Origin: Candidatus Eiseniibacteriota bacterium
Lineage (GTDB): Bacteria; Eisenbacteria; RBG-16-71-46; CAIMUX01
Assembly: GCA_041390305.1 (NCBI GenBank)
Contig: JAWKQE010000028.1
Location: 5,967-69,966 of the forward strand
Direction: 5' to 3'
DNA length: 64,000 nucleotides
Shown here piece by piece: positions 32,792 to 36,286 of the stretch. The notes under the pieces were generated by a model. That model made no database searches and was not told where the DNA came from. It saw nothing but the letters and a program-made list of their open reading frames with translations. The position numbers were made by a program, and so were the translations under genes. Within the stretch, counting starts at the first letter, position 1, and each line of letters starts with the position of its first letter.

Positions 32792-32998
32792 CGCGACTGT
32801 CGCCTCGGTGCGCCCGCGTTGTGGGAGCGCACTCGAACGGGTCTCGTCCAAACCGGGAGTCGGAGGAGACCCAGCTCGAATCCTGCGGTTCGAGAAACGA
32901 AGACGGCCCCGCGATCGCGGAGCCGTCGAGTCGTGTGGGTCATCTCGAATGCGCCGGACGGAGCGTGGTGCCGTGTCGGCGCATCGAGGGAACGAAGC

Positions 32999-33610
32999 CT
33001 ATCCGTTCAGCGCTTCGTGGACCTTTCCGACCATCTCCGGCCCAGGGCGGAGCGTCTTGTCGCCCTCGTCCTTCCACTTGGAGGGACAGCCTTCGTCCTT
33101 CTTCCGGGAGAGGTAGATGTTGGCCTTGAACTTCCTCATGAGCTCGTCGATGTTCCGGCCCATGTTGTAGAAGTTGACCTCCGCGTTGAAGAGCGTGCCG
33201 TCGGGCGCGATGATGAACGATCCGCGGAGAGCGAGACCGGACCCCTCGTCGTACACGCCGAACAGCCGCGACACGCGACCGGTCGGGTCGGCGCCCATCA
33301 GATACTGGACGTTGGCCAGCTCCTTCTCGTCCCGCTTCCAAGCGAGGTGAGTGAACTCGGTGTCCGTCGACACCGTGATGAGCTGGGCTCCCATCCGCTC
33401 GAAGCGATCCTGCTGCTCTGCCAGAGCAGCGAACTCGGTCGCTCACACGAAGGTGAAGTCGGCGGGGTAGAAGAACAGGATCGTCCACTTCCCGTTCGCG
33501 GTGAGGTTCTCGAGCGAGACCTTGGTGAAGTCGTGGCTCTTGGGGTCGTAGCAGGTGAGCTCGAAGTTCGGCACCTTGTTGCCGACCTTGACCTCGCGGA
33601 TCTCAGTCAT
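32999..33610 (-). CDS. ahpC: Selenocysteine-containing 2-Cys peroxiredoxin (AhpC/Prx1 type); UGA at 33445-33443
   Basis: Continuous frame of 203 codons from ATG 33610 (GGAGGA RBS) to TAG: ...FFYPADFTFV-UGA-ATEF...; resolving Cys in EGCPSKW; ALRGSFII.PDG motif. Confidence 0.9.
33404..33442 (-). promoter_or_regulatory. Bacterial SECIS element
   Basis: After the UGA: GCGACC..., an 8-bp stem GCUGCUCU/AGAGCAGC with a GGC apical loop beginning after 20 nt, and a lower stem GCGA-CC/GG-A-UCGC. Confidence 0.8.
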
Positions 33611-33788
33611 CTCGTCCTCCGTCTGGAATCATCGTTCTCTGGGCCCGGGGCCGCGGCGAGCCCGACGCCGATAGCAAACGAGGATTCTGGCACAGGGGAC
33701 GCCGTCCCAGAACCTGTGTTTGAACACGGGATTCCACGTACTCGTGACGGTAGCGACCGATGATGAGGAAGACGAGGCTCGCCCGGAC

Positions 33789-35924
33789 TCAACGTTCGAG
33801 CGTCACCTTCCGGACCGCGGAGCCGCTCGGCGAGTCCATGCGCAGGAAGTAGATCCCCGCCGGGACCGGGGCCTCGCCCAAGCCGGCTCCATCCCACGTG
33901 ACGACGTGAGGTCCAAGGTCGAGTGGACCTCGGAGGAGCGTGCGAACCAGGCGACCCTGTACGTCGAAGACCATGAGGGAGATGGCCCCGGGCGTTGCGA
34001 GATCGAGGTGCACCTCCGTCTCCGTGTGGAACGGATTCGGCGTGACCCGCGCGATCGTGGCGTCGGTGAGCGCGGAGGGGGACTCGCCGTCCCCCGGCGA
34101 CGGGATTCCGGCTGGGTCCGGTGCGATCGTCGTGGCGTCGTCATCGAGCAGAAGTGCGAGAGCGCTCCGGCTCGCGGCGTACCCGCCCCACTGGTAGAAC
34201 TCGTACTCCGCGCTCTCCCCGGGGGCCAGGACGCCGAGCGTCTTCTCGAAGAAGAGGTTCTCCATGTTGCCGCAGCTCCCGGACGGGAAGATCGGGTACT
34301 CGCCCGTGCTGTTTCCGAGGGCGGGTTGGCAGAGGAGATGGACGTAGTCCGGCATCGCAACCGCGGTCTCGTCGGGTGCGATCACTCCGATCGCGTAGTA
34401 GGACGCGTTGTCGAACGCGGCGAACCAACTGCCCGCGATGCCTGCCGGAGGGAAGCTGAGTTCTCCGCCGTAGTCGATCGGATCGTCCGGAAGGATACCG
34501 CGGTCCCCGATCTGTCGGTCGGACGCGCCGTAGAGCCACTGTTCCCGGCCCCAGACGAAGTCGAAGTCATGACTCTGCGTGTCGATGTTCTGCACCACGT
34601 AGCGATGCCGGAAGTAGTGTCGATCGGCATAGAACTCCACGTCCCGTTCGACGTGGACCTTCTCGTCCAGGCCGTAGTTCCCGCCGGAGCGGAAGTGGAA
34701 GACCATCGAGTCGAGGTCTCCGGACACCGGCCACGCGAGGGAGTCGTCCTGCCACTTGATGTTGCTCGGGTAGGTGCCGGTGCCGTCATTGACCGGTGTG
34801 TCGTCGAGGTGGACGGCGACGCGCTCCATACAGTCCACGGTGTGTGGATCTCCGGTGACGAGGTCGGTCACGTGGAGGTCGACGATGCATCCCGGACCAT
34901 GCGGAGTGGTGAAGCTGGAACCGAGGATCGCCGTGTGGATATACCGGTTCCAGACGAGGTAGCCGTTCCGGAAGTTGCGGAGTCCGATGTCACCGGTCTG
35001 GTAACGGTCGACGTGAGTGGCCGCGAGATCACTCGGTGTATCGAACTCGATCGTGACGCGAGTCACACTCGATCCGGTGAGGTCACACTCGAAGGCGATG
35101 ACGTTCCCTTCCGCCTGCACGTTCGCAACACCCGGGCCGGACACGATGAGTCCGGTGATTTCGTTGGCCTGAGGAAAGACCGGGATCCGGATCTGCGCGT
35201 TCGCGACGGAGGTGGATCGGATGAGGCCGAACTCGCGGATCTCGTGATGGAAGCCGCCTGAACCGTTGGGCGAGGCGAAGAAGGCCGTGTAGTCGTCGGA
35301 CGCATCGGGGAGGCCGGACGTGGTGATGCCGGTCCAGCGACGCACGCTGTAGAGCGAGAAACTCGGTGTGTCGGACTGGCCGACGTCCGCGCCCCGGTAC
35401 GCGGTGACGGTGGCGGTGTAGGTCCCCGTCGGACGCGCTTCGCCCTCGCCCGCGCCGATGTCGAAGACGCCGGAGTAGATCCCGTCTCCAGGAACCGCGT
35501 CGTTGCCGGTGCCGTCATCGACGAGTCGGGCCCGCACGCGTGGGTTTGCCGCGGACACGACCACGACCGAGTCGCAGTCGGTGGCGAGATCGATCCCGTC
35601 TCTCACTTCGGCGGTGATTCGGGCGCTCCCGAACCAGGAGTACGACGTGCGATCGAGGCCTGGGGTGACGGTGAGTGTCGCGCGTTCTGCCGGGATCCGG
35701 TCCAGGTCGAGGGTCGCGGGTGGGTCCGTGGGGTCGACGATGCCAAGGGGCAGATCGGCCGCCGTGTAGACGTCATACCCGTACGGCTCGGGGCTCTCCT
35801 TGTCCCAAGGGTTCCAGGTGGGTGGAGGATCCGCCGCGATGGCCGTGTGGAGAGAGCCGACGAGAATGCCGCCGGCGGCGATGCAGAGGGTGACGATCCT
35901 ACCGAGAGAGGTGAGAGCGGGCAT
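33789..35924 (-). CDS. Large secreted protein with a choice-of-anchor-X-like motif and C-terminal FlgD-Ig domain
   Basis: Signal peptide, LVDDGTGNDAVPGDGIYSG Ca-binding-like motif; C-terminal PNPF...FDVQGRLVRTL...G.H...WDG......AGIYF. Confidence 0.75.
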   Translation of the reverse strand: MPALTSLGRIVTLCIAAGGILVGSLHTAIAADPPPTWNPWDKESPEPYGYDVYTAADLPLGIVDPTDPPATLDLDRIPAERATLTVTPGLDRTSYSWFGSARITAEVRDGIDLATDCDSVVVVSAANPRVRARLVDDGTGNDAVPGDGIYSGVFDIGAGEGEARPTGTYTATVTAYRGADVGQSDTPSFSLYSVRRWTGITTSGLPDASDDYTAFFASPNGSGGFHHEIREFGLIRSTSVANAQIRIPVFPQANEITGLIVSGPGVANVQAEGNVIAFECDLTGSSVTRVTIEFDTPSDLAATHVDRYQTGDIGLRNFRNGYLVWNRYIHTAILGSSFTTPHGPGCIVDLHVTDLVTGDPHTVDCMERVAVHLDDTPVNDGTGTYPSNIKWQDDSLAWPVSGDLDSMVFHFRSGGNYGLDEKVHVERDVEFYADRHYFRHRYVVQNIDTQSHDFDFVWGREQWLYGASDRQIGDRGILPDDPIDYGGELSFPPAGIAGSWFAAFDNASYYAIGVIAPDETAVAMPDYVHLLCQPALGNSTGEYPIFPSGSCGNMENLFFEKTLGVLAPGESAEYEFYQWGGYAASRSALALLLDDDATTIAPDPAGIPSPGDGESPSALTDATIARVTPNPFHTETEVHLDLATPGAISLMVFDVQGRLVRTLLRGPLDLGPHVVTWDGAGLGEAPVPAGIYFLRMDSPSGSAVRKVTLER

Positions 35925-36253
35925 GTGCGGCTCCGTGTCGTGTCGTGCCTTGGGTGTCAGAGCGGTTTGCCGCGTGCCGCGCCGTTTCCATCGTCCTGTC
36001 CCGGTGGTGCGCCGTGGAAGCGCGCCCGGCAGGAAGTGGGGAGTGGCGGGCCGATCCCCGTTACATGGCGAGTTCGTACCGACAAGGGTAGCAGATCCGG
36101 CTGGAACAAGACGGCGTTGCCGTGGGAACCGTCGCGGCGTCTCCGGCCGGAACGAAGCGGCGTCTCCGTTGGGGCTGAACCGACGTCGACATCCGGGCAG
36201 AAGTCGTGTTCCCGGGCCGGGCCGAAGTGCGGCATCTCCGGTCGGACTGAATA

Positions 36254-36286
36254 GGGTCAGCCGGGTGGATGCCACCCGGCTGATCC
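36254..36286. repeat. Strong 15-bp inverted repeat in a long intergenic region
   Basis: GGGTCAGCCGGGTGG / ATG / CCACCCGGCTGATCC (one G-U pair). Confidence 0.7.

Follow-up and report, generated by a model that had tools for sequence, protein, structure and literature searches.

A predicted selenocysteine-containing 2-Cys peroxiredoxin encoded through an in-frame UGA in an Eisenbacteria genome

The window is a stretch of 64,000 nucleotides of DNA from Candidatus Eiseniibacteriota bacterium. On its minus strand, a peroxiredoxin coding sequence of 203 codons (32999..33610), identified by translation and a Pfam match, runs from an ATG at 33610 to a TAG at 33001..32999. The frame reads MTEIREV...FYPADFTFV-TGA-ATEFAALAEQ...EGCPSKW...ALNG-TAG, and its single in-frame interruption is the TGA at codon 56 (33443..33445). 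An earlier sequence-only reading had started the gene at ATG 33610, read FYPADFTFV-UGA-ATEF, and described the frame as open on both sides with UAG as its own stop. All these statements held. With codon 56 read as selenocysteine (Sec), the peptide across U56 would be FTFV-U-ATEFAALAEQQDR.

A mechanical listing of open reading frames split the gene into two pieces, one of 55 aa (33443..33610) and one of 131 aa (32999..33394). The sequence-only reading had noted only the last 131 aa on its ORF track, which matched, the 55-aa piece being listed in addition. It had also expected annotation pipelines to truncate the gene, and the two pieces were indeed all that the listing contained.

A Shine-Dalgarno sequence, GGAGGA (33615..33620, minus strand), was seen in the sequence, with the ATG 4 nt further on. 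Related genes carried GGAGG or AAGGAG at the matching site before their ATG. Past the stop codon by 72 nt, a hairpin of 11 pairs followed by T-rich TTCGTTTCT (32902..32927, minus strand) resembled an intrinsic terminator. The downstream neighbor, an FHA-GAF-PP2C phosphatase gene, is convergent. The peroxiredoxin gene is therefore solitary, with a ribosome-binding site and a terminator of its own.

The upstream neighbor on the same strand (33789-36275) encodes a secreted protein of 828 aa that ends in ...VTLER-TGA at 33791-33789, so that TGA also serves this organism as a normal stop codon. Its C-terminal region (...GIYFLRMDSPSGSAVRKVTLER) resembles FlgD-Ig or T9SS-type sorting domains. In the 178-nt upstream spacer, an imperfect 18-nt palindrome, CCnGTGTTnnAACACnGG / CCCGTGTTCAAACACAGG (33730-33713, minus strand), raised the possibility of a regulator site. 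This idea was dropped because 33 related genes had no counterpart of it upstream, and the palindrome is probably a chance or lineage-specific feature.

The product, with C in place of U, matched the Pfam family AhpC-TSA (PF00578) at 3.3e-34 and 117.9 bits (cut-off 26). Hundreds of Cys-form peroxiredoxins shared 62-70% identity with it over the full length. In an alignment with 11 Cys homologues, column 56, occupied by the TGA, was an invariant Cys. This agreed with the earlier placement of the UGA at the peroxidatic residue of Prx1/AhpC, where these proteins have FVCPTE, and the alignment with Cys orthologues that had been proposed as a check put their C opposite the TGA codon. The UGA thus occupies the peroxidatic site of a PxxxTxxU motif (P49-T53-U56).

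T53, R129 and C175-P176-x-x-W179 were also invariant in the Cys-homologue alignment. The nearest solved structures were those of AhpC from Salmonella and E. coli (2e-42), in which the resolving-Cys motif EVCPAKW aligned with EGCPSKW of the product. The resolving Cys was accordingly placed, by alignment with homologues and AhpC structures, at the TGT of codon 175 (33086..33088, minus strand). The product showed the features of typical 2-Cys enzymes, with a resolving Cys in the C-terminal arm (vCPxxW) and the active-site Thr and Arg. The AhpC-TSA match, the Cys column at the TGA, the invariant resolving Cys and the AhpC structures together assigned it to the typical 2-Cys peroxiredoxins of the AhpC/Prx1 subfamily.

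Within this subfamily the product stood apart from the curated equivalogs. It scored 184.8 bits with the AhpC equivalog TIGR03137 (cut-off 272) and 179.5 bits with the PrxU equivalog NF040737 (cut-off 270), below the cut-off in both cases. With AhpC (TIGR03137; structures 1yep, 4o5r and 1we0) it shared the typical 2-Cys architecture, the FTFV-x-xTE segment and the C-terminal vCPxKW motif. It differed from AhpC in having Sec for Cys, an N-terminal extension of about eight residues and a longer C-terminal tail.

With PrxU it shared the peroxidatic Sec, a SECIS about 20 nt downstream and membership of one superfamily, at about 41% identity. The true PrxU of this genome was a different gene on contig C6 (L026, G000:C6:27049-27621, minus strand), which scored 379.7 bits and had relatives at loci L018-L024. 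This PrxU contained FTFV-U-PTE followed by a GGCGGC-GGUC-GCCGCC hairpin. It lacked the resolving Cys, having ATPAGW where the window protein has GCPSKW.

Downstream of the UGA, a putative bacterial SECIS hairpin was located at 33412..33430 (minus strand). Its stem is formed by 33430-33423 and 33419-33412, and its apical loop is GGC (33422-33420). The hairpin, GCUGCUCU-GGC-AGAGCAGC, contains 8 bp with a predicted folding energy of -13.2 kcal/mol. The spacer between the UGA and the hairpin is 12 nt long, and the loop begins 20 nt past the UGA.

A published model of the bacterial SECIS (PMC13188914, Fig. 2A) has a loop of 3-9 nt, a stem of 4-16 bp, a spacing of 16-37 nt and a minimum free energy of -7.5 kcal/mol or lower. 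In the first two loop positions it also requires a G, with G or U as the usual next base (PMC13188914). The hairpin at 33412..33430 satisfied every criterion of this model, as the sequence-only reading had proposed from the 8 bp, the G-starting loop and the 20-nt distance.

On the other hand, folding of a 62-nt segment containing the hairpin gave an energy no better than those of shuffled sequences (z = -0.33). The lack of significance by energy was attributed to the GC-rich DNA, and the hairpin was therefore argued from comparative evidence. No Rfam family matched the hairpin region, even at E <= 10, as expected from the shortness of bacterial SECIS elements and the lack of a general Rfam model for them.

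For this comparison, a DNA scan was made with one genome per prokaryotic species, and the best 80 loci were taken (69-86% identity). The same codon was TGA in 79 of these 80 loci and TGT in the remaining one. The loci with TGA spanned at least eight phyla (Krumholzibacteriota, Acidobacteriota, Planctomycetota, Nitrospirota, Thermodesulfobacteriota, Myxococcota, Rokuibacteriota and Gemmatimonadota). TGA at codon 56 was also present in two relatives from the window's own family and class.

The Sec loci were compared with each other in a set of 82, which contained 79 distinct 75-nt segments and showed 69-87% identity to the product. In the codons upstream (D-F-T-F-V) and downstream of the TGA, the amino acids were kept while third positions varied. 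This indicated that the sequence before as well as after the TGA is translated and kept by purifying selection. On this comparative evidence, the TGA at codon 56 is maintained by selection.

The hairpin itself behaved differently from its surroundings. Its six codons (GCU GCU CUG GCA GAG CAG, for AALAEQ) showed zero third-position variation across the 82 Sec loci, compared with 0.5-1.85 bits in the flanking codons. The first four, GCT, GCT, CTG and GCA, are minority codons in this genome, with usages of 11%, 11%, 23% and 9%. Rare first-position changes in the Sec loci resulted either in a GUC or GGG loop, which is still G[G|U], or in a stem one pair shorter. No base-pair covariation was found in the hairpin across the Sec loci. 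The invariance supports a constraint on this segment, without proving the pairing.

The opposite case was provided by Cys-form loci, of which seven yielded DNA. Five of these seven lacked the hairpin, even where the AALAEQ peptide was kept. Taken with the frozen codons of the Sec loci, this indicates a constraint at the RNA level that goes with the TGA.

The hairpin persisted in the other two Cys-form (TGT) loci, unchanged in L125 and with a single G-U pair in L124. Both are Logan contigs (of SRR24079437 / SRR24079447), and both genes adjoin desulfoferrodoxin genes. Their hairpins look like 'fossil' SECIS elements left from a recent Sec-to-Cys conversion.

These comparisons bear on whether the gene is active at all. 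A nonsense mutation from Cys (TGY) to TGA would have inactivated the peroxiredoxin gene and left fragments at most. Standard gene calling does yield two fragments, and the orthologue was absent from two genomes of the same genus (G001 and G002), which would fit a gene dispensable in the lineage. Such a pseudogene, however, would not be expected to share its TGA with 82 independent loci in many phyla, with amino acids conserved and synonymous variation on both sides, or to retain a frozen SECIS hairpin after it, in a genome that also holds the full Sec machinery described below. We regard it as extremely improbable.

An error of sequencing or assembly, in which the true codon is TGC or TGT, would require only one changed base. 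The TGA in this assembly is based on one consensus sequence and on its conservation elsewhere. Against an error, the exact hairpin of the Sec forms is present here and is made of codons that are rare in the genome (GCT 11%, GCA 9%). The gene also fell within a clade of 41 members, all of them Sec forms (SH-aLRT 97). The hairpin alone is no absolute proof, because the Cys forms L124 and L125 keep it. With the hairpin and the all-Sec clade together, an error is just as improbable as a pseudogene.

The Sec-decoding machinery was found in the same genome, a metagenome-assembled genome (MAG) of 6.39 Mb in 90 contigs that is 86% complete. SelA (contig C9, 497 bits), SelB (C15, 367 bits, full-length match) and SelD (G000:C14:64505-65428 = L010:1501-2424, 378 bits) were all above their curated cut-offs. 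A tRNA-Sec on C8 was called by ARAGORN and matched Rfam RF01852 at 72.5 bits (threshold 47). The sequence-only reading had held that the gene implies a complete Sec machinery and had named its absence as a ground for refutation; the proposed search for selA, selB, selC and selD recovered all four.

The selD gene is a selenoprotein gene too. It contains one in-frame TGA, in SCAG-U-ASK, at the classical position in the catalytic loop. These results together indicate that this candidate-phylum organism uses selenium and has at least three selenoproteins, namely the window peroxiredoxin, PrxU and SelD. Counting the genome of the window itself, 23 of 41 searched genomes had a TGA-bearing peroxiredoxin, which indicated that the Sec trait is widespread in the lineage.

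A further tRNA-SeC call by ARAGORN, with a UCA anticodon, lay on contig C38 (G000:C38:46236-46333 = L025:2237-2334, minus strand). This call raised the question of whether the UGA might be decoded as something other than Sec, either as Cys or Trp through near-cognate read-through or a non-canonical UCA tRNA, or through a reassigned TGA. The C38 candidate, however, lies inside a 362-aa ORF, matched nothing in Rfam at E <= 1 and folded no better than shuffled sequences, and was rejected as a false positive for these reasons. The canonical tRNA-Sec is present with SelA, SelB and SelD. In addition, TGA is the commonest stop among long ORFs of the genome, ending 1086 of 1728, and it closes the neighboring gene. 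Decoding as another amino acid is therefore also highly improbable, if marginally less so than the two alternatives above.

The 79 TGA loci among the best 80, the frozen hairpin and the contrast with the Cys forms together made it very unlikely that the TGA is a nonsense mutation, the result of a sequencing error or a reassigned codon. We interpreted the gene as encoding a cytoplasmic typical 2-Cys peroxiredoxin of the AhpC/Prx1 type, in which the peroxidatic Cys would be replaced by Sec through decoding of the UGA with the help of the SECIS (probability roughly 0.93, judged from sequence and comparison).

In the expected course of events, translation would start at ATG 33610 and meet the UGA at 33445-33443 with the hairpin at 33430-33412, which is shaped as a bacterial SECIS. 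As in the established bacterial pathway, SelB with GTP and Sec-tRNA(Sec) would bind the apical GG loop and deliver Sec in competition with RF2. By analogy with the Prx1/AhpC cycle, T53 and R129 would activate the selenolate of U56, which would attack the peroxide and be converted to a selenenic acid. Cys175 of the partner subunit would then resolve this to a selenenylsulfide, and a thioredoxin-like reductant would restore the enzyme.

Two candidate reductases were searched for in the same 86% complete genome. The best match to AhpF (TIGR03140) reached 60.6 bits against a cut-off of 502.9, and the best match to a canonical low-Mr TrxR reached 87 bits against 343. This genome differs from the AhpC/AhpF system in having no AhpF above the cut-off. 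The two genes may lie in the absent 14% of the assembly, or the lineage may use another route of peroxiredoxin reduction.

Sec-containing peroxiredoxins were already known, as the sequence-only reading had stated. The peroxiredoxin family (Prx, PF00578, with the motif (Pxxx)TxxU) appears in a list of prokaryotic selenoproteins with experimental verification (PMC13188914), where the prototype from Eubacterium acidaminophilum is credited to Sohling et al. (2001). Sec-Prx genes were also reported in 2006 from Geobacter, Syntrophus, Anaeromyxobacter, Syntrophomonas, Alkaliphilus and Symbiobacterium (PMC1794560). The window gene is like these in its AhpC-TSA fold, in the Sec that replaces the peroxidatic Cys in PxxxTxxU, in the position of the SECIS just downstream within the coding sequence, and in the selA/B/C/D trait of the host.

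It differs from the known family in coming from an Eisenbacteria MAG, a new host lineage. It also belongs to a subfamily with UATE, a retained resolving Cys and an 18-nt hairpin invariant across phyla. In the library searched, no papers combined Krumholzibacteriota or Eisenbacteria with selenocysteine or selenoprotein. The gene is a new member of a known selenoprotein family in a new lineage, and its 2-Cys subfamily is different from PrxU.

Since Sec-peroxiredoxins are known already, the finding is mainly one of an annotation gap and not of new biology. An antioxidant enzyme gene is automatically annotated as a 131-aa fragment or missed. The same misannotation affects at least 79 public genomes of Acidobacteriota, Krumholzibacteriota, Planctomycetota, Nitrospirota and others. 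No full-length Sec product of these 79 genomes was among the protein-database matches, of which the best was a Cys form at 70% identity, compared with up to 86% for the DNA loci. The practical value lies in correcting the annotation. Sec decoding and peroxiredoxin chemistry, as they are understood, are unchanged by this gene.

Three features are of modest evolutionary interest: a SECIS that stays invariant across phyla, its fossil remains in Cys forms, and a probable lateral transfer of the gene. In a quick ML tree, the window gene grouped with Krumholzibacteriota MAGs and Acidobacteriota. The nearest copy (L027, in the Krumholzibacteriota MAG JAKLEB010000001.1) was 86-87% identical. On the other hand, the copies from the window's own family and class (L015 and L016) were 63-68% identical and lay elsewhere in the tree, and the same-genus genomes G001 and G002 had no copy. 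This patchy distribution suggests that the window gene was acquired by lateral transfer. In keeping with an Eisenbacteria host, the protein P0056, filed at NCBI under 'Candidatus Eisenbacteria bacterium', was identical to the product of a genome of the same order (G025).

Sec and Cys forms were interleaved family-wide in this tree, with 13 changes between them, of which at least two were forced by well-supported branches; the sampling behind these numbers was uneven, the Cys forms being taken from the protein database and the Sec forms from the DNA scan. That all Sec forms carry the identical hairpin, and that two Cys forms still have it, would fit a family in which Sec is ancestral and has reverted to Cys repeatedly. 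The trend reported earlier for Prx was from Cys to Sec, opposite to a Sec-ancestral reading (PMC1794560).

All these observations could be joined in one tentative scheme, to which we give clearly less than even odds. The gene would belong to an uncatalogued 2-Cys (U...C) AhpC/Prx1 selenoperoxiredoxin subfamily, with one invariant 18-nt SECIS, GCUGCUCUGGCAGAGCAG, in at least eight phyla, lying outside the curated NCBIfam equivalogs and truncated in MAG annotation. Sec would be ancestral in it, and repeated Sec-to-Cys reversion would have left the fossil SECIS of L124 and L125. Krumholzibacteriota-like bacteria would have been the donors of the Eisenbacteria copy in a lateral transfer.

One further copy from the same family as the window genome (L017, G009:C8:174094-174694) gave two adjacent matches in different frames, which covered query residues 3-90 and 86-202. 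This copy is probably frameshifted or mis-assembled.
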